Shown here: positions 176 through 22,001 of the stretch, one piece after another | Position numbering within the stretch: position 1 is the stretch's first letter | How the letters are laid out: each line of letters opens with the position of its first letter | Assembly: GCA_027491735.1 (NCBI GenBank) | Contig: JAOZGP010000040.1 | Span: 1 to 22,178, forward strand | Direction of reading: 5' to 3' | Source: Thermoproteota archaeon | GTDB lineage: Archaea > Korarchaeota > Korarchaeia > Korarchaeales > Korarchaeaceae | DNA length: 22,178 nucleotides | The notes under the pieces: generated by a model | Databases searched by the model: none | What the model was told of the DNA's origin: nothing | The model's input: only the letters and a program-made list of their open reading frames with translations | Translations under genes and position numbers: made by a program

Positions 176-769
176 TTACACGAGAGAACAAATATCCTCG
201 AGATCTTTTCTGGGTCTTGGCTTTACTTCTTCCTTAGGATATCCAACTGGCACCACAGCAATGAGTTTACATCCATCAGGAGGATTCAGGAGCCTGTTGA
301 TCTTATCCTCCATGAAGTTCACGACGCCTATCCAGCACGTTCCGAGACCCATTGCCGCCGCGGCCACCATCATGTTCTCTACAGCAGCTGCTACACTCTC
401 CACCCCCCACAAGAACTCCACATCAGAGAATTCTTCCTTGAGTCCCCTTCTTCTCTCGTCCAAGTAGGCCACTACATAAACAGGAGCGAGATATAGTCCC
501 TCATCGAACTTCCTCAAGAGCTTCTTCACCTGCTCCCTTTTGAGCTCCTTCTTCCTAGCTCTTTCGTAGTAGAACAGGTGAGCATCCCTTATGATCTCCC
601 AGATCCGCTTAACGACGTCACCTCTCTTAACAACAATAAAAAACCATTGTTCCAGTCCCATAGCGTTGGGAGCTCTGATGGCTGCCTCCAAAACTCTCCT
701 TAATCTGCCTTCCTCCACAGGCTTGTCCTCAAAGAGTCTCACACTACATCTACGAAATATGCCCTCCAT
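176..769 (-). CDS. Nitroreductase family protein (FMN-dependent)
   Basis: Typical motifs: RRCSVRLF, AAIRAPNAMGLEQWFFIVV, AAVENMMVAAAAMGLGTCWIG, VPVGYP and RPRK. SD-like AGGTGA precedes the ATG. Confidence 0.93.
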   Translation of the reverse strand: MEGIFRRCSVRLFEDKPVEEGRLRRVLEAAIRAPNAMGLEQWFFIVVKRGDVVKRIWEIIRDAHLFYYERARKKELKREQVKKLLRKFDEGLYLAPVYVVAYLDERRRGLKEEFSDVEFLWGVESVAAAVENMMVAAAAMGLGTCWIGVVNFMEDKINRLLNPPDGCKLIAVVPVGYPKEEVKPRPRKDLEDICSLV

Positions 770-771
770 GG

Positions 772-792
772 GTTCACCTTCACTAGGTGAAC
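772..792. promoter_or_regulatory. Perfect inverted repeat GTTCACCT-N5-AGGTGAAC at the nitroreductase start (candidate operator or RBS hairpin)
   Basis: 8-bp arms at 772-779 and 785-792, between a TATA-like TTTTTAGG (minus strand, 808-801) and the ATG at 769. Confidence 0.45.
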
Positions 793-905
793 AACCCTTT
801 CCTAAAAATCAGCCGTTCAAAACAGCAAGGCCTTTGACGTGAGCTGTTCCTGAGAGGTAGGAACATGATGCGTTCTCCTGATTCGATGGAGAAAATTGGC
901 TGAGC

Positions 906-1526
906 TCATCTCTCCCGAGAAAGAAAGATCTCCACGAGTCCTATAAGCTCCTCAACAGGTTCGGGAGAGAAATCTATCCTCAGATCCATGATCCTGTCGT
1001 AGCTCCTTCCATACTCCGTGGGACCCACAACCAAGATGGCAGCAGCTCTGTCTCCTCTTGCATCTCCCCCTGCTTTTTGACCGGCCTTGAGGGATGAAAG
1101 AAGCCGCCACACAAGATCGCCTCCGCTCTCCAGAAAAGTCTCAACAATTCTGTCTATGACCTCTCTAGAGGACAGCAGGTTTCCTAAAGCCACGTATGAA
1201 CCCTCTCTGTAGCTCCAACCGACTTCTCCAGGAAGTTCAGATCCGCAGTGGATAGCCACCTCTCCATAGGCGGATATCACCCCGACCTGTCTTACCTCAG
1301 GAGATCTATCCATACTCAACGCCTCGTCCAGGGCTTCCTGTGGGCTTCTGTCCTTCTCCATGAGATTGAGTATCACGGGGCCGAGCGATGGGTTTGTGTA
1401 TCCCTGAGTTATCACTCCTCCCACCTTGTACTTGCACCAGAGAACCCTGGATCCCACTGCTATGCTTCCAGAAGCAGTCACACCCCCTATGTACGTCCCC
1501 TCGACTGCTATCATGCTGTAGGTCAT
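906..1526 (-). CDS. DUF1028 family protein (Ntn-hydrolase-like fold)
   Basis: Start revised to MTYSMIA (ATG at 1526). Motifs VGGVITQG..NP..G, RQVGV, GNLL, AGGDARG and DLRID fit DUF1028. Confidence 0.85.
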   Translation of the reverse strand: MTYSMIAVEGTYIGGVTASGSIAVGSRVLWCKYKVGGVITQGYTNPSLGPVILNLMEKDRSPQEALDEALSMDRSPEVRQVGVISAYGEVAIHCGSELPGEVGWSYREGSYVALGNLLSSREVIDRIVETFLESGGDLVWRLLSSLKAGQKAGGDARGDRAAAILVVGPTEYGRSYDRIMDLRIDFSPEPVEELIGLVEIFLSRER

Positions 1527-1663
1527 CGGAGGATCAGTGAACACCGGGACCTGAAACAACTTAACCGTTTGGGTTAATGGGATCAGGAGTTCTGCCTGCT
1601 TGTGGAGAGCGTTATCCCTTATCAGGTAGACCTTCTATGAGAGCTTCATCTCGATGGAGGTCA

Positions 1664-1776
1664 CTAAATAGGCCATTCTTCCATGCGGTAGGCTATATCC
1701 CAGGAACATGTACTCGTATTTGCTTGCTGTTACGAATATTCCTCTGAGTCTTTCGTAGCCTCCTTGATTTCCCATA
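1664..1776 (-). pseudogene. tenA: C-terminal remnant of TenA (thiaminase II / aminopyrimidine aminohydrolase), frameshifted
   Basis: The minus strand reads GGYERLRGIFVTASKYEYMF, then one extra C, then WDIAYRMEEWPI*. This matches the TenA C-terminal YExxFWDxAY motif and lies at the end of a thiamine operon. Confidence 0.8.
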
Positions 1777-2350
1777 TCGAACTATTTTCCGAACATCTCA
1801 TCAGGAACATCACGCAGTCCATCTCCCTCATGAGCTCCTCCACTAGAATCCTCTCCCTGCGACTTATCCCACTTCCCCTGTCTTCTGCTAGGGTTGATCC
1901 ATAGTATGCGTTTCCCAAGAAGGTGCTGCTTTTTCTTACACAGTTCAGTATGTCCTCCAAAGGGCCTGCCTGCAGGTAGATCGAAAGGTCGTTCATAACA
2001 AGCACCGGAGTGGGTTTCTCCAAATATGTCAGGAGAAAGGGTCTTATCGCTTCCAAATTATACCTGGCTAGCCTCAGGACCTCTTTGGCATCTCTGCCCT
2101 CTAGACGAGGAGCTCTCAGGGACTTAGGCCTCAAGTACCTCACCTGATCTGGTATGTTCATGTAGCGGGCGAGTGAGAGCCCCACACCTTTCCTCTCAGG
2201 TCCCATATCTATCACAGTCACTCCTTCTCGGGGAAGGAGAGCGTAGAGTATCTCAACCGTGTGTCTAGTTTTTCCAGATCCCACATCTCCAGCTATTAGC
2301 GTCCTCTTTCCGAAAAACCTACTAACTAAACGTTCTCCAGGTAATCCCAA
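1730..2350 (-). CDS. Uncharacterised small P-loop NTPase in the thiamine salvage operon
   Basis: Walker A GDVGSGKT, a VTVID strand and Walker-B-like VLVMND. Overlaps the thiW stop. Confidence 0.8.
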   Translation of the reverse strand: MGLPGERLVSRFFGKRTLIAGDVGSGKTRHTVEILYALLPREGVTVIDMGPERKGVGLSLARYMNIPDQVRYLRPKSLRAPRLEGRDAKEVLRLARYNLEAIRPFLLTYLEKPTPVLVMNDLSIYLQAGPLEDILNCVRKSSTFLGNAYYGSTLAEDRGSGISRRERILVEELMREMDCVMFLMRCSENSSIWEIKEATKDSEEYS

Positions 2351-2858
2351 TTTTTCTCAACCCCAGAAGGGCGAGATAACCCATTACACACCCTGGCACC
2401 GAGCTGATGGCCCAGCTCCCCCATATCGGTATGAGGGCCCACATCATCTCCTTGTGACCAAGGATTGGAGCGAACACACAGACGGAGATTGTTCCTCCTA
2501 TCAGGACGGTGCCCAGGGGTTCAAATAGAGCAGCAATCTCGACATTCCTTCGGTTAAGCCTTCTCAGGAGCCAAGCCACACTCCCAACGACGACAGCTCC
2601 AGGTATCCCGCCGGGGTACGCGTATACGGTCCCGACCCCCAGACTCATCCTGATCGTCCCCACTATCACGGCTATAAGGGAGGCCCACCAAGGCCCGAGT
2701 AGGACACCAGCTATCGCGTTTATCATGTGCTGCGCTGGATACGCCTTCGATGCCAGGAAAGGAAACCAGAGATAGGGGGATATGATCACGCCCAGAGCTG
2801 AGAGGAGCCCAGCTGTGGCTACCTTCTTTGTTGTGACCGTCCTCTCAGTAGCTGTCAT
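2322..2858 (-). CDS. thiW: ECF transporter S-component ThiW (thiazole precursor uptake)
   Basis: KAYPAQHMINAIAGVLLGPWW, IRMSLGVGTVYAYPGGIPGA and EPLGT are ThiW hallmarks. ATGA overlap with thiDN. Confidence 0.92.
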   Translation of the reverse strand: MTATERTVTTKKVATAGLLSALGVIISPYLWFPFLASKAYPAQHMINAIAGVLLGPWWASLIAVIVGTIRMSLGVGTVYAYPGGIPGAVVVGSVAWLLRRLNRRNVEIAALFEPLGTVLIGGTISVCVFAPILGHKEMMWALIPIWGSWAISSVPGCVMGYLALLGLRKIGITWRTFS

Positions 2859-4222
2859 CCAATCACCTCTGTGAGCTTCTTCACAATCTTCGCAAGCTCA
2901 ACGGAGTCCTTCCCCAGCAGGACTATCATAGGCTCCTTCCCCCAATCCCCCCTGTGGTAGATGACGTCAGGAACTCTCCCCACTCTTTTTATTGCTTGTT
3001 CAACCCCCCAGGGTACCGATGCTCCTTCGCGCTCCTTGATCCTTGGGGGTTCCTTCCTTCTATCGTAGTGTGAGATTGCAAGCCCCATTCTCCTCAGCTC
3101 AGCGAGGATCTCCTCGTCAAATGCTATGTTCAAGGCGGCCCTCACCTCCGCATTGTATCTCCTGGCTGCAAGTATGTACCTGGCTAGGTGTGAGCTAGCA
3201 CCGAATTCTGGTGGAGAGGATGCCCTTATCCTATTCCCAACTCTTCTAAGCCTCCCGGGAATAGCAACAATGTCTATAACGTCTACGGCATAGGGTAACG
3301 ACATTGCCACATTGATTCCAACCTCGGGCGCGATCTTCTCAGCATTATCCAGTGACTCGAGCAACTCAACCGCTTCCTCGACCCTCTTCCACGTGTGATA
3401 TCTTTCAGAGTCGTTGTAGAGTCTGGCCATAGGGTTCAGAGGGCCATGCCCAGATCCCACAGGGATGCCGAACTTTATAGCATGCGTGACCAGCTTCTTG
3501 GCCACCTTAAATGCCTCCTCCACGGAGGACCCCTTAGCCAGCTCAGCTGCTATGGCTGCCGAGAACGAACATCCCGTGCCGTGAGTGCACTTCGATCGCA
3601 TTCTCGGTGCTGATAGCTTCAGGTACCTTCCGTTGTGATACAACACGTCCACGGATTCGGTCTCCCTCAGATGTCCGCCCTTAACTATGACGGCCGCGGG
3701 ACCCATATCAGCTATGAGCCTCGCTGCTCTCTCCGCATCCTTCAAGCTCCCTATCCTGACGCCTGCAAGAACCTCCGCCTCCCGCGCATTCGGTGTAACC
3801 ACTTCGGCCATTGGCAGGAGGACCTTGATCAGCGTGTCCTTGGCATCGGATCTCAGAAGGGGAGCGCCGCTCTTCGCTATCATGACGGGGTCCACGACCA
3901 AGGGGATCTGATGTTCCCTCACCTTCTCAGCCACAGCTTCTATTATCTCGGCGGTGTGGAGCATCCCTGTCTTTGCTGCATCAACGCCGATGTCCTCCAC
4001 AACCGCATCTATCTGCGCTTTCACGACATCGATGCTTACGTCCTGAATTGCCGTAACCTCTCTGGTGTTCTGAGCTGTTATCGAGGTTAAAGCTACAGTT
4101 CCATGAACTCCTAAAGACGCAAAGGTCTTTAGATCAGCTTGTATTCCAGCTCCTCCACCGGAATCGCTGCCCGCTATCGTCATGGCTACGGGGACCTTGG
4201 AGAACACGTCTAACCAGACCAT
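2855..4222 (-). CDS. thiDN: Bifunctional HMP/HMP-P kinase ThiD fused to archaeal thiamine-phosphate synthase ThiN
   Basis: N-terminal [28 protein letters not shown] and THGTGC motifs (ThiD). C-terminal [28 protein letters not shown] (ThiN). ATG at 4222 is preferred over GTG at 4231. Confidence 0.96.
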
Positions 4223-5478
4223 CTCTCCCACCTTCTCAACAAGTATTGAAGCAGAGCGGACATCAGGAAGGAAGGCAGACTGGCTCCCACGTCGGGGAAG
4301 TGTGTGGCTATAGCGAAATAAGTTGTAAGCCCGACAATCCAGGAGATGATCGATCTGGGAACTATCCTCGGAGCTCCCTCGTAGAACTCCTCCACATCCA
4401 CCCTTCCCCTTCTCACCAAGAAGTACTCGGAGAGCATCACTCCGAAGAGAGGAACGAAACTAGCTCCTATGAGCAGTAGAAACCACTCATACTTGGACAA
4501 GGGTAGAAAGTAAGCTAGCACAGCCGATAGAATGGATATTAGGACTATCAGCTTCCACTGTCGCGCCTTGGGGAAGGCGTTCTGAATGGAAAGAGCACAG
4601 GAGTAGACATCAGCAAAGGCGTTGTCTGTCTCATCCACTAATATGAAAAGGAGAGCCATCCAGCCGAAGTAAAGGGAGAGTATGGAGGCAGCAATGAACC
4701 CCCGACCGGACATCAGAGCTAAAGCTGCTCCCAGAGAGTAGAACCATGCGTTAGCCAGGGCATATCCCAACATCGTGGAGAGCGTACAGGACCAAACCTT
4801 CGAGCTGAACCTGTTATAATCGCTGACCAGGGGCATCCAGGAGATAGGCATGGCTATCACTAGATCTAGGGCGAGAGTCCAAGGGAGACCTCCTCTTCCT
4901 CCGGAGATTGCCCACTTAGGAGTTGTTATGACCATATAGGTTATCCAGGCTGTTGATGCATAGACAAGCCATATGGCGAACTTCTCGAGCCACTGCCTCA
5001 CCACGGTGAGAGGCCCTCCCACAGCCAAGAGCATAATCACAACGGTGAACAGGACGAGGAAAAGTAGCTCACAGCCGCCGCCCAGAATGAGGGACGATGC
5101 ATCCGCCATGATTTTAAGTTCAAAGGCCGTCCATCCCACCAGCTGTATTACGTTTAGGATCGTTGCGATATAAGATCCCGCGAAGCCGAGGATAGGCCTG
5201 AGGGAGACCATGGTGGGAACTCCATGCCTCGCCCCAATCACCCCCGCTGACGCTAAGAGCGCGCTGCCTGCAATAGATCCCACAAGAGACACTAAGATCG
5301 CCTGATCAACTGTTAGAGCTGGAGCCATCAAAGCTCCGGCCTGTAGAACCAGAATGCCAACACCTAAACTCGACCAGAGGACAAACAAATCTATACCTCT
5401 TAGGATCCTGGCACTCTTGGGTACGGGCTCTATCCCCCACTCTGGAGGTCTTCTGATCTTCCATCTTGGCCCTGACAT
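4210..5478 (-). CDS. cytX: NCS1/purine-cytosine permease family transporter, CytX-like (putative hydroxymethylpyrimidine transporter)
   Basis: Multi-TM protein with [25 protein letters not shown] and DNAFADVYS motifs. Lies under a TPP riboswitch. Start revised to ATG at 5478 (SD GGAGG upstream), because the ORF-track start falls inside the riboswitch. Confidence 0.88.
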
Positions 5479-5483
5479 CGTAT

Positions 5484-5505
5484 CCCTCCAGCGGGCGCTG
5501 GAGGG
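5484..5505 (-). promoter_or_regulatory. SD-sequestering hairpin (riboswitch expression platform)
   Basis: Minus-strand CCCTCCAGCG-CC-CGCTGGAGGG buries the GGAGG SD just upstream of ATG 5478. Its GCGCCCGCTG is complementary to the aptamer 5' strand CAGCGGGCGC. Confidence 0.75.
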
Positions 5506-5525
5506 GCTGGCCAGCATAAGGAGGT

Positions 5526-5629
5526 GCGGGCACACTCCCTACGCCGGCATTACCCGGATCAGGTTCAAGGGGTCGGCGGCAGGCTAGCCGCCCTCTCAGC
5601 CGGGTTCCCCCAGCTCCCCTGGCGCCCGC
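5526..5629 (-). ncRNA. TPP (THI-box) riboswitch aptamer
   Basis: The minus strand reads GCGGGCGCC-AGGGGAGC...GCTGAGAGG...GACCCCTTGAACCTGATCCGGGTAATGCCGGCGTAGGGAGT-GTGCCCGC. It has the conserved GCTGAGA, GAACCTGAT and TAATGCCNGCGTAGGGA motifs, and P1 is GCGGGCGC/GTGCCCGC. It sits upstream of thiamine genes. Confidence 0.97.
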
Positions 5630-5886
5630 TGATCTTCAACATCAGTAGATTCTGATAAGTTTTATCCTTGCGCTTCAGCCAACCATCCTCCTCGAATTTA
5701 AAAGCCCTCGTACATATACGAGCACACAGCAGTTGAAGAGGAGCTCTACGCAGTTAAGCAAACAGGTGAGATATTTGAAGCTCATCCAAAGCAGTCCAAA
5801 AACGGGAACAGAGGAGAGATCAGATCATAAGGATGCCCAGATCACCAAAAAGTTTTTCATGGTGCAGTGAGTTGTTGGACCATCCC

Positions 5887-6336
5887 ATGCCCGGATACAG
5901 GACGCATCTGCTCACCAGCCTGACCTTGGCGACGGTTTCTGCTCCGCTGACCTCCAAGTATCTCCGACTTGACCCATTAAACTTTCTCCTCTTCATACTT
6001 CTCGCAGGAATAGGTTCCTTGGCGCCAGATCTTGATCATCCAAAATCTAAAGCCCACAGATTTATCATGAAGCTGGCCTTGATCGTTGTTCCCATATCAG
6101 CAGTGCTGATCCTAGAAGGAATCTGTCCGGTAGACAACGTCCTCGTTCCATGCTTCATCCTAGCCCTGATCTCCATACCCAACTTGTTCAAACACAGGGG
6201 GCTTTGGCACTTTCCTTTAGGCCTCCTGCTAGCAGTTCCCTTGTACTTCTTCCTTGAGACTGGTGGGCTTGCGGCCTCTGCTGGCTACACTCTCGGGTAT
6301 ATCAGTCACCTGTTCCTCGATCACCTCGAGGCATAG
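5887..6336 (+). CDS. Membrane-bound metal-dependent hydrolase (YdjM family)
   Basis: Motifs RTHLL, PDLDHP, HRGLWH and GYISHLFLD, plus hydrophobic helices. Start revised to ATG at 5887. Confidence 0.88.
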   Translation: MPGYRTHLLTSLTLATVSAPLTSKYLRLDPLNFLLFILLAGIGSLAPDLDHPKSKAHRFIMKLALIVVPISAVLILEGICPVDNVLVPCFILALISIPNLFKHRGLWHFPLGLLLAVPLYFFLETGGLAASAGYTLGYISHLFLDHLEA

Positions 6337-6490
6337 AGGAATGAGATAAGGTATTTCGATGGAGGTTTGGGGACGAAAGGAGGAGGATACCAGCCCTTCA
6401 CAGATATATGTCCATCGAGGAGTGAGAATCGCACTAAAGTATGAGGGGTGTCCTTCGTCGATGTATATTAGATCTTAACAAATGCGGATA

Positions 6491-6803
6491 CTATATCACC
6501 CCAATCCGCTTGAGGAGTAGGTGAATCGCTATGGCTCTCCAGACAGTTAATATAACGCTCATCATCCACTTAAAGTTGCTGTTCAGGTCTTTCCTTAACT
6601 CACTTATCTCCCTCCTTAGATAGCCTATGTCGCCCTTCAGCTCCTTCCTCAAGGCTTCTATGTCGTTCTTGCTTGCTGAATTCCTTAGCGCGGTATTTAT
6701 CATAGCCAACCTGGCGTCAGGCTCAGCTACAAGCAGCCCAGCTAACCTCTTCTTAGCTGAAGCGTCCTTCTCAAACAGGTCAAACCACGTCGCCAGCCGT
6801 CAA
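6491..6803 (-). pseudogene. Frameshifted archaeal coiled-coil protein with C-terminal TM (DUF1640/ATKxD-like)
   Basis: TTG at 6803 gives LTAGDVV, then an extra T, then DLFEKDASAKKRLAGLLVAEPDARLAMINTALRNSASKNDIEAL...FKWMMSVIL. The ORF track catches only 6491-6709. Confidence 0.6.
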
Positions 6804-7070
6804 GCTCGCATACATTCTAAGCTGGCAAGAATATAAGGAGTTATCACGAGCTAAAGTAATGAAATAACTGGATCGGTGAGCTTGGGCCATCCTTGTCCCG
6901 TCTCTTCCTCTTAGCTTGGGGATGTAGTCAAATAGAAGGGCATGTGAGTTGGGGGAGAGCATTGCAGCATTATCGCTAAGGTGAAACTGGGTGACAGGAG
7001 CGACTCGTAATGCTGCATGTATGACACATGACACCTCCGGAACGTCAAGATTTTATAAAAATCTACCGCG

Positions 7071-7290
7071 AGAAGGCCACCACTCGAAAGCGGTGGATGA
7101 GCTGCTGTTAAACTTAAATGTCCTGAAGCGTTTTTAAGTAAGTGACAGGCTCCTCAGCTTCACACCGGGTGGCGGTCCGTGACCACTTAAGCCTGGTGAA
7201 CAACTCAAACCCAGGTGTGTGAGGGGCCGTTGTAAGACTGTGGTTCATAGGTGGACGTCCCAAATCTCTGGGCGATGAGGATAGCTCCAC
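7071..7290 (+). mobile_element. Possible degenerate IS200/IS605-derived remnant
   Basis: GAAGGCCACCACTCGAAAGCGGTGGATGAG (7072-7101) resembles IS605-type subterminal hairpins. Downstream GTGGTTCATAGGTGGACG resembles tnpB 3'/omega-RNA regions. Recognised by eye only. Confidence 0.3.
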
Positions 7291-7381
7291 AGACGGATTT
7301 GTGAAGAGATTTCCCACTCCTGAGCCCTTAAATTTCTATCCCGTGGAATGTTGATTCAAATTCGGTGTGTGAGGTGGTTTT

Positions 7382-7732
7382 TTGGACGATGTGGAGAAAG
7401 CCAGAGTGGTTCAGTTGATCCTTAGGGGAAGGACAAAGGAGGCCATGCGGCTGGTTTGTGAGAGCTTCGGAAAGCAACCTCCAAAGATGAAAGTCGGCCG
7501 AGTGAAGGGTCAGGGGAGGGCTTTGGCCGTGTATCTCCCTCGGAGATCAACAATCTACTTCTCAGATGGATCTCTGACCAGGAACCCTTTCGTGGTCCTA
7601 CACGAGCTCTACCACCACATAAGGTTCCTCGCTGAGAAGCATAGAGGGACTGAAAAGCACGCCAACAAGTTCGCCATGGAGTTCATAAGAGCCTTCAGTA
7701 AACTATCGAGAAGTCCTCAAACTCCCGAGTAA
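7382..7732 (+). CDS. Small HExxH (zincin-like) putative metalloprotease, uncharacterised
   Basis: VVLHELYHH followed by TEKHANKFA (HExxH...E-x-x-A pattern). SD GAGGTG precedes the TTG. Confidence 0.75.
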
Positions 7733-7994
7733 CCCTCTCCCATCTGACCTCCACTCTGTCCACCCTGGCGAGAGGTGGACCCCTGTGAGCCCATCTTATC
7801 AATTCATCCACTCTGTCCTTCGGTCCCTCCACCACAGCCTCGACGCTTCCATCTGGGAGGTTTCTCACCCACCCTGTGAGGCCCAGCTCAGTGGCACGCC
7901 TTCTCATGGAGGATCTGAAGAAGACCCCCTGAACTCTTCCATAGATCCTGAGGTGAGCCCTGACGCGGTCCTCCACTTTCCCCCCTGAATGCAT
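7695..7994 (-). CDS. acyP: Acylphosphatase
   Basis: [21 protein letters not shown] and GPPLARV signatures. The start may be GTG at 7976. Confidence 0.96.
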
Positions 7995-8040
7995 TGCATA
8001 AGATGCTATAAAGATTCTGCGGTGAGATTGACGAGTGGCC

Positions 8041-8820
8041 TCAGAGGCTGGCCAGGGCTATGCCGGCCAGTATCAGCAGGGCTCCGAGGATCCCCTGTAA
8101 AGACAACCTCTCTCCCAAGATCGCTGCAGATGACACAGCAGCGACGACAGGTTCCACAAGGTATGCAATTGCTGCTACATCGGGAGGGATGTATTTCTGA
8201 CCTTCCGCCTGTGCCCACAGGCCGAACACCGTCCCAAAGACTGCTGTGTAGACGACAGCCCCTGCACTGACTATCGAAAACTTAGGGATGCCACCCAAGG
8301 TCGCCAGGGGAGCACTTCCGGCGGCCATGACCACGGATTGAGCGAAGGCTATCGACGTGGGGTCGCTCTCCCTGGTGCACATGGTCACCAGCACTATCTG
8401 AACAGCCCACAGAAAGGCAGATATAAGCGTCAACAGATCCCCGAGGTTGAGGCTCGCAGTCAGGTCGGTGAGGAGGGCCAGACCAATCATGCCCAGTCCC
8501 AGCGAGGCGAGGTCCTTTGTGGAGGGTTTGCTTCTCAGGAGAAGGAGTGCCACCACGGGGGTGAAAACGGCGTACATCCCGGTTATAAACCCGGAGTTTG
8601 TGGCTGTCGTGAACTCCATCCCTCCCACCTGCAGGGCTAGTGCTGCTAAGGATACAAAACCTGTTAGGACGCTCAATCCCGTCAGCTTCGGCCTCGATAT
8701 GGCTATCAGCACAGGAAGGGCAAGCAAGAACCTCATGAATATGAACTGAAATACGGACAGGTCGTTCAGAGCCAACTTTATGGCAGGGAAGGTTAGCCCC
8801 CATACGATTCCGGAGGCCAC
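8041..8820 (-). CDS. EamA/DMT family transporter
   Basis: Two EamA repeats ([29 protein letters not shown]). The real start may be upstream at CTG 8847. Confidence 0.92.
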
Positions 8821-9994: not shown

Positions 9995-11191
9995 TCAGAC
10001 ACCTTTCTGTGGGTTCAACAGGTTGAAGAACCACCTCAGAACCTCTAGGGATATGATCCCGTAGGCTTTGCTGAGTGCTCTCGCCTCTATCTCTGATACG
10101 TACTCCTCAGTAAACTCTGGGCTCAGTGAGATGAGGGAGTCGACCATATCTATGGTGAAGGGAAGACCTGTGGTCTTGTTGAAGAAATTCTTCTGACCAA
10201 GCCAGAGTTTAAGTCTGTCGATCGGTATCGAGGAGGGGTACTCCACTTCGCAGGTGGGGGCCTCGGGAAACTTCCTCACCTGAAGCCTTCTCAGCTTTTT
10301 AACCAAACTCTCGTCCATCCCCAGAACTCTATAAGGTTCGTAGGCCCTCTCTCTAGCTACTTCAAGAGGAGTTTCAGGCCATATCCCTCTGTGGGCCATA
10401 TAGGCCAGCTGAGTGTACACGTAGACAGGATCGTCTCCTGTTATCCTCTCATATCTCAGGATCGTGTTCGACGGCATGATCATAGAGAGAAGAAGCTTGT
10501 CTATTATCGTCACAGGACTGTCGATCCTCCCCACGAGATCTTTGTTCCTCAGAGCTAGCCACCCTCCGATGGCCCTTGTGTGGCTCCTCTTTATCACTCC
10601 CATGACCCTCTCGCTCTCCACCAGCCTGTTAGTCAGCTGACACGTCTCCTCAAATAGAGTCCCCTCCCTCTCTCCAAAGAACCCCTGCTTTCTCATCCTC
10701 AGAGCTGAATAGATGAAACCATAGAAGCTCCCGTCTATCATCAGAAAACCGTCTTCCAGTCGGTTGAGCACCTCAACAGCAGCCTTTCTTTCAGCATAGA
10801 TTGATAGGAGGTTGAAGAAGTACTTGCTGACCTCTTGCGAGAACGCCTGCTTTCTCTTGAACTGACCAGCTTCGTAACCCTCATATATCCTCTTCATGCC
10901 CTCCAGGATCACAACTCCAACGGAGAAGACGCCGTACCTAACCCCAAGCCTCTCGCTCAATCTAGGAGATCTGGAGCCATCGATTGCAGCAACCCGGAAC
11001 ACCCGGTCGTGCTCGCTAAGATCCTCCACGAGGGGAACTATTTTCCTCTTTAGCTCTAAAACGGTTCTTTGAAGCCTCTCCACAACATTAACTATCCTAC
11101 CAGCCTCCTTCTCTGCTTCTTCGAAGAACTTATACTGAAGGTCATGTGGTAGCTTCAGCCACTCCACCTCGTCATCGGCTCCGCTCATCAC
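9995..11191 (-). CDS. nurA: NurA-family 5'-3' nuclease
   Basis: RVAAIDGS, FLMIDGS, GVIKRS and C-terminal GLPF..D..D motifs. Translationally coupled to herA. Confidence 0.85.
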   Translation of the reverse strand: MMSGADDEVEWLKLPHDLQYKFFEEAEKEAGRIVNVVERLQRTVLELKRKIVPLVEDLSEHDRVFRVAAIDGSRSPRLSERLGVRYGVFSVGVVILEGMKRIYEGYEAGQFKRKQAFSQEVSKYFFNLLSIYAERKAAVEVLNRLEDGFLMIDGSFYGFIYSALRMRKQGFFGEREGTLFEETCQLTNRLVESERVMGVIKRSHTRAIGGWLALRNKDLVGRIDSPVTIIDKLLLSMIMPSNTILRYERITGDDPVYVYTQLAYMAHRGIWPETPLEVARERAYEPYRVLGMDESLVKKLRRLQVRKFPEAPTCEVEYPSSIPIDRLKLWLGQKNFFNKTTGLPFTIDMVDSLISLSPEFTEEYVSEIEARALSKAYGIISLEVLRWFFNLLNPQKGV

Positions 11192-11709
11192 TACACCTCA
11201 AATGTTATCAGGAGAGGTATCGGGCTTGGGTTCATGACGCCGGCGAAGTAGAACCTTCCATCCTCAAGGTTGAGAAGGTATTCCGGAGTTATTCCATAAG
11301 GACCGAGCCACTCCTTTGCACCTCCCTCTCCGGCGGCGTCCAGAGGATGTAACCTCCCATAGAAATTGGTGTTAAGGTTTCTCCTCACAGCAGCGTTCAC
11401 TCCTATCTCTCCAGAGATTCCTTGAGCTATGAGCGTCAGGTTCAGGTTGTGCTTTCTACCCAGAGCGGCCAAGTTCTTTACAGCGTTTGTGACCTCAATC
11501 TGAAGTCCCTCCGGTCGAAACGGTGTGTACTGGGGGGCCTCGTCTATTATCAGGACCATGCTCAGGTCATGTCCCGAGCTCATCCTGTCCATGAGCTCCT
11601 TGGTCAACGTTATAAAGAAGCTCAGCTTGGCGTTGCTCGAGAACTCGGACATATCCACCACGGTGACTCTTGGTCCATTCAGCAGAGAGGAGATTCTTCT
11701 TGTTCCCAT
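11191..11709 (-). CDS. herA: HerA-like ATPase, C-terminal part (after frameshift)
   Basis: VTVVDMS, Walker B LIIDEAPQY and arginine-finger region LGRKHNLNLTLIAQ. Confidence 0.82.
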   Translation of the reverse strand: MGTRRISSLLNGPRVTVVDMSEFSSNAKLSFFITLTKELMDRMSSGHDLSMVLIIDEAPQYTPFRPEGLQIEVTNAVKNLAALGRKHNLNLTLIAQGISGEIGVNAAVRRNLNTNFYGRLHPLDAAGEGGAKEWLGPYGITPEYLLNLEDGRFYFAGVMNPSPIPLLITFEV

Positions 11710-12638
11710 GACCTGGCGGAGGTGATGGGTTTCAGCTTCCTGAAGATCCTATCGGAGGCCCTCTCGGCATTGGACCTCCATCTCTTATCTACCTGATCGA
11801 TGTACTGGCGTATATACCTCTGGATCTCCTCGTAGAGCTCATCGCACGTGTGCACTCGGTTGAGCAGATCATGCCAGGAGCATACCAGCTGATCAAAGAC
11901 GTCCTGCATGGAAGCGTTCCCCGCGAACTTGTCCGTTATTCCGCTCAAGTACTTCAGGATGGATATCTCGTCCTGAGCCACCTCTGAGATTGGGACGACA
12001 TCCTCATAGTACGGGACGTAATCACTCCCGCTCCAGTCCAGCACTAGAACCCTCAGCCCACATCTTATGTAGAACGGAATGAGAACATACCTCGTGAACC
12101 AGGACTTCCCCGTGCCAGTTGCTCCGAAGACTCCCACATGATAGGGCACGTAAAACTTATCCGCTGGAACCCTCCAGGTCGGATGCCCGTCCAGATGGGC
12201 ATCTAGCCACTCCAGCTGCTTTGCTGATGGAGCTATATATCTTTCGAGAGGATTCTCATCGTCGTCGAACAGGTAGACAGGGGACCTCGGGGCTATTATT
12301 TTCCTGTTTGGTCTTATCCTTATAGCACCTTCTCTCTCCTCCACTTCTCCTATCAGGGATATCTGAAAGGAGAAGACCTCCCTCGAGCTTGAAGGCTCCC
12401 CTCCATACTTCATGTAGGCTATGTCCGGTCTGTATCTGGAGAGGTTAAGCAGCTCGTTCCTACCCAAACCCCTCCTCAATACCCCTACGACCTTACCGAT
12501 CTTTCCTCCTTCTCCCCCGTTCTCTATCAGAACGAGACTTTCTGAGGAGACCTCAGACTCCATGTCCTTGAGCAACACAGCGGTCGCTGATGTATCCGTT
12601 GCTCCGTCGGCAATCCTACCTATCAACCTCAAGTCCAT
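11679..12638 (-). CDS. herA: HerA-like ATPase, N-terminal part (HAS barrel + Walker A), frameshifted
   Basis: IGRI N-terminus, PRSPVY, Walker A HVGVFGATGTGKS and VLVLDWSG. Start revised to ATG at 12638, with TATA-like TTTTTATC about 30 nt upstream. Joins 11191-11709 via a -1 shift. Confidence 0.82.
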   Translation of the reverse strand: MDLRLIGRIADGATDTSATAVLLKDMESEVSSESLVLIENGGEGGKIGKVVGVLRRGLGRNELLNLSRYRPDIAYMKYGGEPSSSREVFSFQISLIGEVEEREGAIRIRPNRKIIAPRSPVYLFDDDENPLERYIAPSAKQLEWLDAHLDGHPTWRVPADKFYVPYHVGVFGATGTGKSWFTRYVLIPFYIRCGLRVLVLDWSGSDYVPYYEDVVPISEVAQDEISILKYLSGITDKFAGNASMQDVFDQLVCSWHDLLNRVHTCDELYEEIQRYIRQYIDQVDKRWRSNAERASDRIFRKLKPITSARSWEQEESPLC

Positions 12639-12808
12639 CCCCAAAACACCGGTATGCGAAGAGATAAAAACATGAGATGTGATCTCGCACCCTACGATCA
12701 CGACAGACGTGGATCATTACTACGGATCGTGCTCCACGGCAGTTCGATTATCTCGTGATCCCACTCTTCTATCTTACAGGACAAGTCCCGGCCTTTGTAG
12801 GAGATGGA

Positions 12809-13450: not shown

Positions 13451-14335
13451 ATGCGTTTGACACTTGTCGGGATACATTCCAGGCCTGATTATCTGATAAA
13501 GGCTTCTAGAGACTTAGATAGGGGAAGAGTTGGTGAGAAGGAGTTTCTGAACCTTCTAAGAATATCTGAAAGTGAGATAATTGAACTTCAGAGTTCTCTA
13601 GGTTTTGAACCGGTCATAGACGGAATGTTCAGGTGGCAGGACATATTCAGACCGCTGACCAGAACGATATCGGGATTGTCAGCTGGTCCACTGAGCAGGT
13701 TCTTCGACAACAACACCTTCTTCAGAAGGCCGGTAGTCGGCTCCAAGTTGGAATATGTTGGTGGAATGGAAGATTACTTCAGGGGTGAGAAGCTCATCCT
13801 CCCAGGACCGTATACATTTCTGAGATCTTGTGAGGACAGGAACTACAGGTCGAAGAGAGAGCTCATCAAGGACTACGTTCATTGCCTTGAGGAGATCACT
13901 GATGATCTAAAGCCCACCGAGGTCCAGATAAATGAGCCCTGGTTGGTCTACAAGTACAGAAGGACGAATCCCGATGATGAGGATCTCCGTGCGGTCGCTG
14001 AGTGCTCGGAAACCCTCCGTGCATCGATACACCTGTACTTCGGTGATTGTTCATCAGTCGCTGAATCCCTCTCCAGGCTGGGGGTGAAAGTCATAGGTGT
14101 AGATCTGATCGAAACACAACCGGAGGGCCTGAAAGGAATCGATTCAGACCTCATCCTCGGAATTGTGGACTCAAGGAACACGCTTATGGAGAATGAAAAA
14201 TCCCTTTTGGAGCTGATAGAGCCATTTGAAGGAGTTTACGCCATCTCCCCAAACTGTGATCTCGAATTTCTCCCCTACAATCGTGCTTTGCGTAAGATGG
14301 AGCTTCTATCACGATTAAGAGGTGAGGTCTCATGA
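13451..14335 (+). CDS. Split cobalamin-independent methionine synthase, N-terminal-like (folate-binding) subunit
   Basis: DGMFRWQD, RFFDNNTFFRRP, LPGPYT, QINEP, GIVDSRNT and SPNCDL match the MetE N-terminal barrel. ATGA overlap with the next gene. Confidence 0.85.
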   Translation: MRLTLVGIHSRPDYLIKASRDLDRGRVGEKEFLNLLRISESEIIELQSSLGFEPVIDGMFRWQDIFRPLTRTISGLSAGPLSRFFDNNTFFRRPVVGSKLEYVGGMEDYFRGEKLILPGPYTFLRSCEDRNYRSKRELIKDYVHCLEEITDDLKPTEVQINEPWLVYKYRRTNPDDEDLRAVAECSETLRASIHLYFGDCSSVAESLSRLGVKVIGVDLIETQPEGLKGIDSDLILGIVDSRNTLMENEKSLLELIEPFEGVYAISPNCDLEFLPYNRALRKMELLSRLRGEVS

Positions 14336-15414
14336 TCACACAGGAGATAGGGAGCCTCGCCAAACCCAATTGGAGGGTCAAGTTTATTCGAGGGGAGAGC
14401 CTCTTAGAGAGTGATCTGGGAGAACTGAGATACTGGGATGAGGTGCTGGGACTTAAGTTTGACTTAAGCCTCCTCAAGAAGAGAGGAGAGGGGAGTATAA
14501 GGAAAGCAGTTGAACACTCAGCTCTGCAGGCTATAAGGCTTCTGGAGAAGGCTGGACTCGATGTTGTGTTTGACGGTGAACAGTTCAGGACGGAGATGTA
14601 TGAGTACCCCTTGAAGCATGTTAAGGGGTTCGAGTTCGTCGGACTTGTCAGAAGCTTCGACAACAAGTACTACAGAAAGGCGGCCTGCGTCAACGTCCCG
14701 GAGTTGAGAGAACCGTATCATCTCGAGGAGTTTCTGTTCGTCAAGAGGCACACCAGGAGAAAGATCAAGATCCCAATAACGGGACCATATACGCTGGCCG
14801 AGTGGTCCTTCAACGAGTATTACGTCGAGAAGCATGGAAGGGGATATGATGCCAAGCGCGAGTTCGTTCTGGATATAGCTAAGAACGTGATCAGGCCCAA
14901 TCTCGAGACCTTGATAGAGGAAGGTGCAGAGATCATACAGATAGATGAGCCTGCCCTGACCACGAAGCCGGATGAAATCCCCATATTCGTTGAGGCCTTC
15001 AATGACATGATCTCTGGACTTGAGTGCAAGTTCAATGTACACATATGTTACAGCGATTACTCCGTGCTGTTCCCCGACATACTGGAGTTGAAAAACTGCA
15101 ACCAGCTGGCCCTGGAGTTTGCGAACAGAGATGATGAGAGGAGAAGCGGTTATGATCTCCTTAAAACCCTCAGGGATTATTCCTATGAATGGGAACTTGG
15201 TTTGGGTGTTGTGGATGTACATACTGATTTCATAGAGCCACCGGAACTCATCAGAGACAGGATATTGTATGCCACTAAGTTCTTGGATCCGAGGAAGATC
15301 GTTGTGAACCCGGACTGTGGCCTCAGAACTAGAACATGGGATGTGGCGTTTGCTAAGCTCAGGAACATGGTCAAAGGAACCAGGATGGCTGAGGAGGTGT
15401 TGAGGTTTGCTTGA
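14332..15414 (+). CDS. metE: Cobalamin-independent methionine synthase, catalytic Zn-binding subunit
   Basis: DGEQFR, ITGPYT, IQIDEPAL, Zn ligands HICY / E / NPDCGL, and GVVDVH. Confidence 0.93.
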   Translation: MITQEIGSLAKPNWRVKFIRGESLLESDLGELRYWDEVLGLKFDLSLLKKRGEGSIRKAVEHSALQAIRLLEKAGLDVVFDGEQFRTEMYEYPLKHVKGFEFVGLVRSFDNKYYRKAACVNVPELREPYHLEEFLFVKRHTRRKIKIPITGPYTLAEWSFNEYYVEKHGRGYDAKREFVLDIAKNVIRPNLETLIEEGAEIIQIDEPALTTKPDEIPIFVEAFNDMISGLECKFNVHICYSDYSVLFPDILELKNCNQLALEFANRDDERRSGYDLLKTLRDYSYEWELGLGVVDVHTDFIEPPELIRDRILYATKFLDPRKIVVNPDCGLRTRTWDVAFAKLRNMVKGTRMAEEVLRFA

Positions 15415-17371: not shown

Positions 17372-18301
17372 GTGAAGTTGATCTTCGGTCCGGTTCCATC
17401 CAGGAGATTGGGCAGGTCTCTAGGAGTGAACAACATACCTCCCAAGCACTGCACGTACTCATGCGTCTACTGCCAGGTTGGAAGGACTGCCAGGCAGGAA
17501 GTCGTGAGGAAGAAGTTCTACGAAATGGAGGACCTGGTACAGGAGGCCACGATCGCTGCCGAGAGATCTAAGCCAGACTACATAACATTCGTTCCGGATG
17601 GAGAGCCCACTCTCGACATAAACCTCGGAGCCGAGGCCAGGGAGATCAAGAGAAGAATTTCGTTCAAATTGGCGGTGATAACAAATTCGTCCCTTCTCTG
17701 GAGAGAAGATGTGCGACGAGATCTGGAGGCCTTCGATCTCATCTCCCTGAAAATCGACTCCATGACCGAGAGAATCTGGAGAAGGATTAACAGACCTCAT
17801 CCAAGCTTGAGCCTTGAGAGGATCCTCGATGGAATGAGGCACCTGTTCGACAGGCTCGGAGGTGAGAGGATAATAACAGAGACAATGATTGTTGACAAAG
17901 TTAACACCGAGGAGGATGAGATTGAGAGGATAGCTGAGTTCCTGGCGGAACTCTCCCCCAGGACTGCTTACCTGAGCGTACCTGTGAGACCCCCGGCCGA
18001 GAGATGGGTCCTTCCTCCCAGCGAGGAATTCCTCCTCAAAGCCCGTGAGGTCCTGTCGGAGAAAGGACTCAGGGTTGAGCTCCTAACCAGACCGGAGGGC
18101 TCAGGATTAGAGCCTGGAGATGATCCCAGAGAGCAGATTCTTGGAATAGCAGCAGTCCATCCGCTCAGAATGGATTACGCCCTCGAGCTTCTGGCCAAGA
18201 TGGGGTGTGGGCGGGAGCTCGTAGATGAGCTCCTCGAAGAGGGTTTGCTTGTCCTGAGGAAGTACAGGGGAGAGGAGTTCCTAGTGAGGAGAATAGGATA
18301 G
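17372..18301 (+). CDS. Radical SAM protein (COG0731 / Tyw1-related Fe-S oxidoreductase)
   Basis: FGPVPSRRLGRSLG, CTYSCVYC (CxxxCxxC), DGEPTL and ITNSSL. Start is probably GTG at 17372 rather than 17291. Confidence 0.9.
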   Translation: MKLIFGPVPSRRLGRSLGVNNIPPKHCTYSCVYCQVGRTARQEVVRKKFYEMEDLVQEATIAAERSKPDYITFVPDGEPTLDINLGAEAREIKRRISFKLAVITNSSLLWREDVRRDLEAFDLISLKIDSMTERIWRRINRPHPSLSLERILDGMRHLFDRLGGERIITETMIVDKVNTEEDEIERIAEFLAELSPRTAYLSVPVRPPAERWVLPPSEEFLLKAREVLSEKGLRVELLTRPEGSGLEPGDDPREQILGIAAVHPLRMDYALELLAKMGCGRELVDELLEEGLLVLRKYRGEEFLVRRIG

Positions 18302-19840
18302 CTCGGCCATCTCCTCGTCAAGCCCTTTCCAAATGACCTTCACCCCAGCTCTCTCAGCCAGAGGTACGGCAAGTTCCTCGGGAACCTTCAGGTCCCTCAG
18401 GATTCTCCTAAGATCGGAGATCCTTCGAGGTCTCTCCTCTGTAGTCCTCCTGGAGATCACATCGAGGAGTTTCGATGATATCAGATAGTCTCCAACCAAC
18501 TCGTAGCCTTTAGGACAGCAGATATCTCTTAACTGAGCTGATGTAACTCCAAGCTTGGATGAAAGGTCCCTTAAGGAAATCACATCTTCCTCAAGCTTCA
18601 TCTTGTTGAGAACCTCCTTAAAGGAGTTCTTCTTCTTGTTCCACAACTTCTTCTCAACCTCCTTCAGCTTTCTAGCCAAATCAGCGTGATCAATCCTTCT
18701 TTCAAAGTAAAGAACCTCTTTTTGTGTGGTTTCGATCTTGGAGCAGAGGAGATCCTTCCTGGCCACTAACAGGACTGGTTCCTTGACCAACCTGAGCTTC
18801 TCCACCTTCCTCTTTATGTAGTCAGGGGTCCAAAACCCGACCACCTCGACGTACATCCCGATCGGACCCTTCTTGAGGAGGAAGTCTGGTATTACCAGCG
18901 ATCCATCAGCTACAAGAGGCTCTGGTTCCCTGACAACGGTCCATCCTCCAGCTGAGCAGGCCCTGGCGAACTCCTTCTCGAGGGAGCTGTCGTACTCGAG
19001 TTTGGGGTACCTCATGTCGGGAAACAGGTCTCTTCGAGTGTCGTCAACCTCCAAAAGCACTATCCTCTTTCTCCTCCCGATTCTCCTGACTATTCTAGCT
19101 CTGATGGACCAATTGCTCAGGGAGGCCACGTAGGGAACGAGTTTGGCCATCGCCATGCCGTACTTGGTTGTAAACTTGAGAACTGATGCCGGTCCATCGA
19201 GAGATAGCTTGAGCACCCCCTTCCATTTGTACGGCATGTACATAAGGCCGAGCCTCTTCACAGCTCTCATTAGGTACTTAACCTCGTTTCCGGAGGAGGA
19301 GGTCAGAACCTCCATCCTCACTGACTTGAACATCGCCGTTTGAAGGAGGGATAGGTTGTACTCCTTCAGAAGGTCTTCAGGGCTGGGTTTGTCGAAGCCC
19401 ACCAGCCGAAGGGATGGATCGAAATCAGCCCACAGAGTGAACTCCAATTCCTCGGCGCTCATGCCGAGCTCATCGGCGGCCAACTGCAGGGCCTCTCTCC
19501 GGTAATCCTCAGTCACGAACCCACCATATCTCTGGTTGACTATTCTGTAAACGATCTCTCTAGCCTTCACTGGATCCATCCTGGTCTCAGGTCTTTCAAA
19601 TGTGGACCTCCTCTCAAGAAGGATGTAAAGTCCTCTTATCAGCCTGTAATCCAGACCTGCTGATTCATACTCCTCCTCCATCTTCTCTGCATCATCCTGA
19701 ATCTCTCTCAAGGTCCTTCCCTGCTTGAAGATGGATATCAGATCACTGGCCAGGTTCAGTTCCTCCTCTCGGCCCAGCGCCCATCTGAGGTGAAGCTTTC
19801 CATTCCTGACGAAGGCCCTGAGAAGCTGGGATTGAAGCAT
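18281..19840 (-). CDS. bax1: DUF790 family endonuclease Bax1 (XPB partner)
   Basis: YNLSLLQT, LGLMY, DGPAS...YG..MA, YDSSLE..F and REPEPL...IPDF...EVVGFWTPDY. TGATG-coupled to xpb. Confidence 0.9.
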   Translation of the reverse strand: MLQSQLLRAFVRNGKLHLRWALGREEELNLASDLISIFKQGRTLREIQDDAEKMEEEYESAGLDYRLIRGLYILLERRSTFERPETRMDPVKAREIVYRIVNQRYGGFVTEDYRREALQLAADELGMSAEELEFTLWADFDPSLRLVGFDKPSPEDLLKEYNLSLLQTAMFKSVRMEVLTSSSGNEVKYLMRAVKRLGLMYMPYKWKGVLKLSLDGPASVLKFTTKYGMAMAKLVPYVASLSNWSIRARIVRRIGRRKRIVLLEVDDTRRDLFPDMRYPKLEYDSSLEKEFARACSAGGWTVVREPEPLVADGSLVIPDFLLKKGPIGMYVEVVGFWTPDYIKRKVEKLRLVKEPVLLVARKDLLCSKIETTQKEVLYFERRIDHADLARKLKEVEKKLWNKKKNSFKEVLNKMKLEEDVISLRDLSSKLGVTSAQLRDICCPKGYELVGDYLISSKLLDVISRRTTEERPRRISDLRRILRDLKVPEELAVPLAERAGVKVIWKGLDEEMAELSYSPH

Positions 19841-21156: not shown

Positions 21157-22001
21157 GCGGAGGGTGGGTAAGCCTTCTGGAGGAAACTCACCAGACATGC
21201 GTTCACCTTCTCCGGCTCCTCAAGTAGGAGGTAGTGACCTGCATCTGGGAACACCACCATCTCCGAGCTCGGGATCTCCCTAAGCTTTTCCGTGAGGAAA
21301 AGAGGAACCATCCTGTCACGACCGCCAGCTATCACCAGGGTGGGAATCTTGATCTTGGAGAGCTTATCGCTTAAATCGAAATTTTTGAGGCTAAGGAAAA
21401 CATTCACAATATCCTCCGGAGAGTTGACCTGTATGGCTCTCATAGCCCAGTCTATAAGCTCTTCGGATGCCTTCTCAGTGAACATGTCCTCAACCTCCCT
21501 CCGGAACTCCTTCATGTAGTACTCTCTGTTGTCCAAGGCTGTGAAGAACTCGAATGGAGAGGAGAGGGAAAAGGCCATCGTCTCGGCAAGCTTCCCCAGA
21601 TACTCCTTGAGGGGATCGTATCCTCCTCTTCTCCTATGCGCTCTGCTGGCTATCAGGACTAATGCTCTAACAACATCAGGATGATCCACGGTGTACTGCA
21701 AGGAGATCAGTCCTCCCATTGACCATCCCATGAAGGCAGCTTCCTTCACGTTCAGATATGTTAGGAGCTCGTGAAGGTCATCGGAGAACTTCTTCACGGA
21801 GGAAGGCCTCCTCAGCCTTGAGGATCTCCCATGCCCTCGAACGTCCAAGGCCAGGACCCTATATCTCATTGACAACACAGGGATCTGCTCCTTCCACCAT
21901 TCATGGGATGCCCATGCCCCATGAATAAGTACTATCCACCTTCCCCTCCCTCCATAGATCTCGTAGAAGATCCTACCATCCTTCAGCTCTAGGTTGGGCA
22001 A
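21153..22001 (-). CDS. Alpha/beta fold hydrolase
   Basis: HGA oxyanion motif, DVRGHGRS, nucleophile elbow GWSMGG, G.RD acid and AGH histidine. Confidence 0.93.
   Translation of the reverse strand: MPNLELKDGRIFYEIYGGRGRWIVLIHGAWASHEWWKEQIPVLSMRYRVLALDVRGHGRSSRLRRPSSVKKFSDDLHELLTYLNVKEAAFMGWSMGGLISLQYTVDHPDVVRALVLIASRAHRRRGGYDPLKEYLGKLAETMAFSLSSPFEFFTALDNREYYMKEFRREVEDMFTEKASEELIDWAMRAIQVNSPEDIVNVFLSLKNFDLSDKLSKIKIPTLVIAGGRDRMVPLFLTEKLREIPSSEMVVFPDAGHYLLLEEPEKVNACLVSFLQKAYPPSA

Follow-up and report, generated by a model that had tools for sequence, protein, structure and literature searches.

How does an archaeon that appears to import both halves of thiamine phosphorylate the thiazole half, when the usual kinase, ThiM, is not found in its genome? 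The question is raised by the window analysed here, the whole 22,178-nucleotide (nt) stretch of contig JAOZGP010000040.1 from a genome of the Korarchaeaceae (GCA_027491735.1), in which an operon controlled by thiamine pyrophosphate (TPP) ends in a gene for a small P-loop protein. From sequence comparisons, we put at about 60% the probability that this protein represents a new family of soluble hydroxyethylthiazole (HET) kinases that use ATP and would replace the ribokinase-fold ThiM in many archaea. A preliminary description of the locus had offered two roles, a missing thiazole kinase or a partner of the transporter component ThiW. The kinase role is favoured by co-occurrence with ThiW, by exclusion with ThiM and by the gap in the pathway; a role in energising ThiW is disfavoured by the canonical ecfA and ecfT genes that lie beside thiW.

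The P-loop protein and its gene

The gene and the two nucleotide-binding motifs of its product are placed as follows.

1730..2350, minus strand: candidate hydroxyethylthiazole kinase, a P-loop protein of 206 amino acids (aa); open reading frame (ORF) with the start codon TTG at 2350 and its stop at 1730
2267..2290, minus strand: Walker A motif GDVGSGKT, residues 21–28, read directly in the ORF; G21, G26, K27 and T28 are conserved in 94–99% of 158 family members
1988..2005, minus strand: Walker B-like strand VLVMND, residues 116–121, read directly in the ORF; strand E116–120 in the structural model, with N120 98% and D121 99% conserved

The ORF and both motifs stand as first described, and so does the overlap with thiW, which amounts to 29 nt between the start of this ORF and the end of a gene whose identity is backed by PF09512 and TIGR02359. 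The motifs supply both hallmarks of the RecA-like (additional strand, catalytic glutamate; ASCE) P-loop NTPases, a Walker A sequence of the form GxxxxGK[ST] and a hydrophobic Walker B strand ending in Asp. A word-based search returned 33 homologs and an exhaustive phmmer search 259 representatives at E ≤ 1e-3, of which 184 remain at E ≤ 1e-10 and 33 when the threshold is E ≤ 1e-30, and 17 columns of a 22-sequence alignment are invariant; the ORF is therefore not a chance one. The stored gene call, P0001, is only 184 aa long and begins at a GTG within the Walker A motif (window 2267–2350, minus strand). Because close relatives align from residue 1, the TTG at 2350, this is probably a start-codon miscall through which the public annotation truncates the protein. 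A terminator-like site at 2023–2005 falls within the gene and is treated as chance, since the scan gave 3 sites against 4.0 expected.

None of the Pfam or NCBIfam families matches the protein at E ≤ 0.1. At this threshold there was no match to the ThiM/HK models (PF02110 and NF006830), to ABC_tran (PF00005), to the KaiC model (PF06745), to CobU in the Pfam search or to any adenylate-kinase-like Pfam family. With neither an ABC_tran match nor the ATP-binding cassette (ABC) signature LSGG in its sequence, the protein is not an EcfA, as had been argued from the start.

A salvage pathway with one step unfilled

Synthesis of thiamine phosphate by ThiN requires a phosphorylated thiazole. The source genome (1.36 Mb in 41 contigs, 87.85% complete) encodes CytX, ThiD, ThiN, ThiW and ThiL (205.6 bits) without Thi4, ThiG, ThiC, ThiE or ThiM, and for this reason the organism looks, by its gene content, like a dual auxotroph for hydroxymethylpyrimidine (HMP) and HET. 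ThiC and ThiE were not found in it, the search for Thi4 gave only N-terminal fragments with the flavin adenine dinucleotide motif within larger proteins, and that for ThiG gave one partial match of 27.8 bits. The absence of thiM from the window, noted at the outset, is borne out and extends to the genome at its 87.85% completeness: the PF02110 search found no true ThiM, its sole matches being a 29.5-bit partial one in a 512-aa protein with YjeF_N and Carb_kinase domains and the ThiD domain itself. Two modules of the energy-coupling factor (ECF) type are also present.

Excerpts from PMC6593275 give ThiD, ThiE, ThiM and ThiL/ThiN, with the transporters CytX and ThiW, as the signature of a dual auxotroph, and assign HET to ThiW as its substrate. 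The elements of this signature are all matched in the source genome except the HET kinase; HET phosphorylation is thus the one step without a gene.

Co-occurrence with ThiW and exclusion of ThiM

The distribution of the P-loop gene was profiled in archaeal samples from the Korarchaeota, the Thermoproteota, the Asgard group and a fourth phylum (201 genomes), the last searched for ThiW only.

Korarchaeota, 43 genomes: P-loop gene in 20 (E 7.5e-22 or better), ThiW in 20 (over the cut-off), both in 20, P-loop gene only in 0, ThiW only in 0, true ThiM in 0
Thermoproteota sample, 401 genomes: P-loop gene in 125, ThiW in 126, both in 123, P-loop gene only in 2, ThiW only in 3, true ThiM in 14
Asgard sample, 116 genomes: P-loop gene in 20, ThiW in 18, both in 18, P-loop gene only in 2, ThiW only in 0, true ThiM in 0

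Co-occurrence with thiW had been proposed as a check on the assignment, and it is close to complete: carriers have both genes in 20 of 20 cases in the Korarchaeota, 18 of 20 in the Asgard sample and 123 of 128 in the Thermoproteota, where carriers of either gene are counted. The thermoproteotal exceptions include genes at contig edges, with one of the two solitary P-loop genes at a contig start and two of the three solitary ThiW genes at contig ends. ThiW is found in 4 of the 201 genomes of the fourth phylum, all four of them already known to carry the P-loop gene. Taken together, 165 of 168 ThiW-positive genomes also have the P-loop gene.

The anti-correlation with thiM that had been proposed alongside is seen as well. 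Full-length ThiM (229.9–288.3 bits, model positions 1–245) occurs in 14 of the 401 Thermoproteota, and the P-loop gene is missing from all 14; under the assumption of independent genomes, which does not hold, such zero overlap would arise with a probability of 0.005. The only well-assembled genome with ThiW and no P-loop gene, G253, encodes ThiW with its own ecfA–ecfA′–ecfT set and a ThiM scoring 259 bits. Conversely, no true ThiM was found in 50 P-loop genomes taken across the lineages of the best 80 loci (see below), the best PF02110 match being a partial one of 49.2 bits in ORFs of about 290 or about 510–540 aa. Full-length ThiM was likewise not found among the 43 Korarchaeota, with 43 bits, again partial, as the best score, or in any of the 116 Asgard genomes at E ≤ 1e-15.

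The operon, its relatives and the ThiW fusions

In the window, the P-loop gene is the last of a one-strand series in which riboswitch, cytX, thiD–thiN, thiW and P-loop gene follow one another with overlapping ends.

5518..5630, minus strand: TPP riboswitch aptamer, first element of the operon; Rfam RF00059, match over model positions 1–105 of 105 with 68 bits (gathering score 54.3)
4210..5535, minus strand: cytX, putative HMP permease; PF02133 75.4 bits, TIGR02358 (thia_cytX) 292.4 bits, which is under the cut-off of 309.85
2855..4231, minus strand: thiD–thiN fusion, HMP/HMP-P kinase and thiamine-phosphate synthase ThiN; PF08543 315.1 bits, PF10120 204.8 bits, NF006346 624 bits
2322..2858, minus strand: thiW, ECF-type S component for a thiazole precursor; PF09512 134.6 bits, TIGR02359 149.9 bits against a cut-off of 84.35

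Its position downstream of the riboswitch at 5518–5630 agrees with the original placing of the P-loop gene inside a TPP-controlled operon. Of 12 related archaeal loci that were scanned, three likewise have a TPP riboswitch heading the operon (L001 2738–2851, L003 1430–1525 and L008 243–356); the remaining nine have none at the gathering score and must therefore be regulated by other means.

A scan of one genome per species identified 189 loci that encode a relative of the P-loop protein, and the proteins of the window were compared by tblastn with the best 80 of these, to which the following counts refer. Linkage to thiamine genes is upheld, with ThiW in 69 of the 80, ThiD–ThiN in 62 and CytX in 23. 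The position of ThiW relative to the P-loop gene varies.

Same strand, directly upstream (gap ≤100 nt): 49 loci
Same strand, upstream within 1 kb: 6 loci
Same strand, directly downstream: 3 loci
Divergent, within about 110 nt: 5 loci
Divergent, about 1.5 kb: 6 loci
ThiW absent from the locus: 11 loci, 4 of which have <600 nt of upstream sequence

When starts are taken from the longest ORFs, overlap is the rule among adjacent pairs and reaches 106 nt. Among the unlinked P-loop genes, one has an AIRS-family ThiL-like gene nearby (L051) and another ThiD–ThiN (L068), and ThiW is encoded elsewhere in the genome in four of five cases tested. In two loci of the Bathyarchaeota type without an adjacent thiW, a gene of the SBF (sodium/bile-acid symporter) family lies upstream of the P-loop gene (L056 4372–5490 and L061 3224–4249, both on the plus strand). 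This gene might encode a second thiazole carrier; ThiW is present elsewhere in both genomes.

In two natural fusions, P0068 (387 aa) and an ORF of L030 (378 aa), ThiW is N-terminal to the P-loop domain. The two are only 39% identical, yet collinear through the linker, and are therefore no assembly artefact; P0043 is a third fusion, incomplete at its N-terminus. These proteins came from the exhaustive phmmer set and a scan of the loci, the word-based search for longer (fused) relatives having returned none. They suggest physical proximity of the P-loop protein to ThiW. Prediction of a complex from the ThiW and P-loop alignments gave a score of 0.00 in both of two runs, a result that carries no weight either way.

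Conservation and fold of the family

The family has no Pfam or NCBIfam model. Its members are about 190 aa in size, most of those among the phmmer matches listed having 170–235 aa, and are labelled 'hypothetical protein' in their sources except for one, P0027, labelled 'cytidylate kinase'. The best 80 of the 189 loci are all archaeal, spanning Korarchaeota-like genomes, Bathyarchaeia, Nitrososphaeria, Caldarchaeales, Methanomethylicia, Thermoprotei, Brockarchaeota, Odin- and Promethearchaeota and four metagenome-assembled genomes (MAGs) labelled Methanocellales. In an alignment of 158 sequences, positions L18, G21, G26, K27, T28, D48, P51, G57, P81, R82, N98, L117, N120, D121, L126, G129, T143, N147, Y149, G151 and E166 are at least 85% identical; with so wide a set of conserved positions, the family keeps far more than a nucleotide-binding site.

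Similarity to known families is confined to the P-loop. At E ≤ 1, Pfam searches with the 22 members of the smaller alignment matched generic P-loop families only (DUF87 in 16, AAA_22 in 16, AAA_16 in 14); ABC_tran appeared at this threshold as weak matches in 7 of the 22, the best at 1.4e-4. A profile search against sequences of solved structures gave matches at the level of Walker A only, the best being HerA (E 0.0025). The nearest clusters in the ESM Atlas are unnamed ('hypothetical protein'), and NTPase_1 appears only at 0.81, a mere lead. Of the three unnamed clusters nearest to the protein, two include bacterial members, most often from the Thermodesulfobacteriota; either the family may extend to bacteria, or mis-binned contigs may be the source of these members.

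An AlphaFold2 model built with the 22-sequence alignment has a mean predicted local distance difference test score (pLDDT) of 85.2 and a predicted template modelling score (pTM) of 0.85. Its Foldseek matches are RecA-like ATPases, FlaH (E 2.7e-7, TMq 0.51) followed by F1, KaiC, Rho and RadA, from which we assign the modelled fold to the RecA-like (ASCE) class. The top structural matches of like size are small-molecule ATP enzymes, CobU being the closest in size with 13% identity in the structural alignment. These neighbours transfer phosphoryl, nucleotidyl or adenosyl groups to small cofactor precursors, and this shows that such chemistry is feasible on the scaffold, leaving function unproven. 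No more than 1 Z unit, however, separates CobU and CobA from Rho, Rad51, FlaH, KaiC and F1, all of them ATPases with mechanical or regulatory roles. A comparison with CobU, KaiC and kinase folds had been proposed in the preliminary description; its outcome is thus a RecA-like fold with the like-sized CobU and CobA among the nearest structures, but with kinases not set apart from Rho, KaiC and FlaH. The adenylate-kinase-like class is not represented among the structural matches listed, which does not exclude that class.

Comparison with known systems

The closest functional counterpart would be ThiM (PF02110). The P-loop protein shares with it the proposed reaction, the complementary distribution noted above (none of 14 ThiM genomes carries the P-loop family) and the same place in a salvage route that, in the excerpts from PMC6593275, consists of ThiD, ThiE/ThiN, ThiM and ThiL with CytX and ThiW. 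The two are unrelated in sequence: the P-loop protein has a Walker A motif and a predicted RecA-like fold, and ThiM a ribokinase-like fold. Unlike ThiM, the P-loop protein is almost strictly tied to ThiW. CobU, the adenosylcobinamide kinase/guanylyltransferase, resembles it in being a small RecA-like P-loop protein, and acts on a hydroxyl of a cofactor precursor. The identity of only 13%, the lack of a Pfam match at E ≤ 0.1 and a genomic context of thiamine, not cobalamin, set the two apart. EcfA and EcfA′, which energise ECF transporters such as ThiW, are also P-loop ATPases encoded beside an S component, but are longer (about 280 aa against about 190 aa), bear the ABC signature and ABC_tran match that the P-loop protein lacks, and coexist with it as true ecfA, ecfA′ and ecfT genes in the same clusters. 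The single-domain RecA-like ATPases of the FlaH/KaiC type differ in that the KaiC Pfam model is unmatched, in the conserved motifs outside Walker A and B, and in a context of motility or the clock where that of the P-loop protein is vitamin salvage. A search of the full-text literature (titles, abstract openings and passages) met no description of the family, an earlier mention, for example in a regulon table, being possible. On present evidence, we regard the family as new and its putative reaction as a known one, which would make it a non-orthologous replacement of ThiM.

Weighing the alternatives

Genomic context and co-occurrence would serve equally well for an ATP-dependent enzyme of thiazole or thiamine salvage with another substrate or another chemistry: a kinase of thiamine or of carboxy-HET, the latter a used thiazole vitamer according to PMC5899164, or a CobU/CobA-like nucleotidyl- or adenosyltransferase that activates imported thiazole. 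The closest structures, CobU and CobA, do perform guanylyl and adenosyl transfer besides phosphoryl transfer. We nevertheless think an alternative of this kind unlikely, given that phosphorylated thiazole is what ThiN needs and no alternative way of making it is seen in the source genome. ThiM is a HET kinase, and its mutual exclusion with the P-loop gene indicates the same reaction; were the protein a thiamine kinase, CytX, ThiD and ThiN, encoded in the same operon, would lack a thiazole-phosphate partner. That the protein is a generic NTPase, unrelated to thiamine and merely located beside thiW, would account for its lack of family annotation and its Walker A-level similarity to known families, but is scarcely credible for a gene whose linkage to ThiW survives at least five gene arrangements, several phyla and physical unlinking and whose phyletic match extends to 165 of 168 ThiW-positive genomes.

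An ATPase bound to ThiW, which gates, energises, assembles or regulates the transporter and performs no chemistry on the thiazole, would be in keeping with the almost obligate co-occurrence, with the C-terminal fusion of the P-loop domain to ThiW in some proteins, with overlapping reading frames that suggest translational coupling, and with a fold common to the accessory and regulatory ATPases FlaH and KaiC. Separate ecfA, ecfA′ and ecfT genes beside thiW in L087, L016, L011 and L089 make this role rather improbable. In L011 the order is ecfA..ecfT–thiW–P-loop gene; in L016 ecfT and ecfA, with a gene for a ThiN-domain protein, are divergent from thiW–P-loop–cytX–thiDN; and in one genome of the Methanomethylicia a thiW–ecfA–ecfA′–ecfT operon (L087) and the P-loop gene (L014) are on different contigs. 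EcfT-family genes are present in all 50 P-loop genomes tested. Since canonical ECF modules coexist with it, the P-loop protein is kept in addition to the ordinary energiser of ThiW, except where ThiM is present, as in G253, whose thiW–ecfA–ecfA′–ecfT set is accompanied by ThiM and not by the P-loop gene. Moreover, an accessory ATPase would leave the HET-kinase step unfilled.

Several points weigh against assignment as a HET kinase. We infer the activity from comparative context, and the near-absolute dependence on ThiW and the existence of fusions are compatible as well with a protein whose target is ThiW itself. To our knowledge, the substrate of ThiW has never been demonstrated experimentally. 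Few lineages underlie the anticorrelation with ThiM: ten of its 14 carriers have ThiM scores of 279.7–288.3 bits and are probably one clade, and the decisive contrast, ThiW and ThiM present with the P-loop gene absent, is a single genome. The Korarchaeota and Asgard samples agree with the proposal but give no contrast, because no ThiM was found there. Incomplete MAGs make up most of the genomes, and related ones are not independent of each other; finally, the fold search does not single out kinases.

A model for thiazole salvage

If the P-loop protein is a HET kinase, HET would be imported by ThiW with a canonical ECF module and converted to HET phosphate (HET-P) by transfer of the γ-phosphate to the hydroxyethyl group, a step that would also trap the imported thiazole. 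HMP would enter through CytX and be converted by ThiD to HMP pyrophosphate (HMP-PP), which ThiN would join to HET-P to form thiamine monophosphate; ThiL would then make TPP, and TPP would shut off the operon via the riboswitch. Mg-ATP would be held by K27 and T28 of Walker A and D121 of Walker B, and the thiazole pocket and catalytic base may be provided by the family-specific invariant residues D48, R82, N98, N147, Y149 and E166. Coupled translation, supplemented in some lineages by fusion to ThiW, would serve to coordinate the kinase with the importer. A more speculative extension, which we consider doubtful, places the kinase at the cytoplasmic face of ThiW, by docking or by fusion, so that import and phosphorylation of a vitamin precursor would be coupled in a single complex, a vectorial 'import-and-trap' module of an origin old enough to be common to Korarchaeota, Thermoproteota and Asgard.

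Other features of the window and related loci

906..1559, minus strand: DUF1028 gene; PF06267 178 bits

This is the next ORF downstream of the P-loop gene, at a distance of 170 nt. It had been read as a tenA remnant, which it is not: it encodes a DUF1028 protein, and the TenA model PF03070 is unmatched genome-wide at E ≤ 1. The gene has a counterpart in none of the 80 related loci and for that reason is probably no part of the thiamine operon.

A region of about 1.7 kb (6336–8041) lacks tRNAs, Rfam matches at the gathering score and ORFs of ≥120 aa, and contains only short ORFs of 67–116 aa. On the minus strand at 9995–12701, a NurA gene precedes a HerA-like region that reads as two ORFs, a 172-aa one unmatched in Pfam and a 340-aa one with DUF87, which may point to a split or frameshifted HerA. 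The N-terminal and catalytic domains of cobalamin-independent methionine synthase are encoded by two genes with a 4-nt overlap (13451–15414, plus strand), after which comes an MTHFR gene. At 18281–21198 (minus strand) a DUF790 gene adjoins a gene for an XPB-type helicase, which we take to be the archaeal XPB–Bax1 pair. Among the related loci, L016 encodes, beside ecfT–ecfA and divergent from thiW–P-loop–cytX–thiDN, a 311-aa protein with a C-terminal ThiN domain (531–1466, minus strand; 125.5 bits), an architecture that is presumably that of the archaeal ThiR regulator.

Significance

Salvage of thiamine from HMP and HET has been reconstructed in genomes by way of ThiD, ThiE/ThiN, ThiM and ThiL, and archaea that have CytX, ThiW and ThiD–ThiN but not ThiM therefore look like dead ends. 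If the P-loop protein is the HET kinase, the missing step would be filled for about one-third of the sampled Thermoproteota, about half of the Korarchaeota and one-sixth of the sampled Asgard genomes, and predictions of vitamin auxotrophy for uncultured archaea would be corrected. It would also be a further case of non-orthologous enzyme displacement, on a RecA/CobU-like scaffold that is seldom used for small-molecule kinases.
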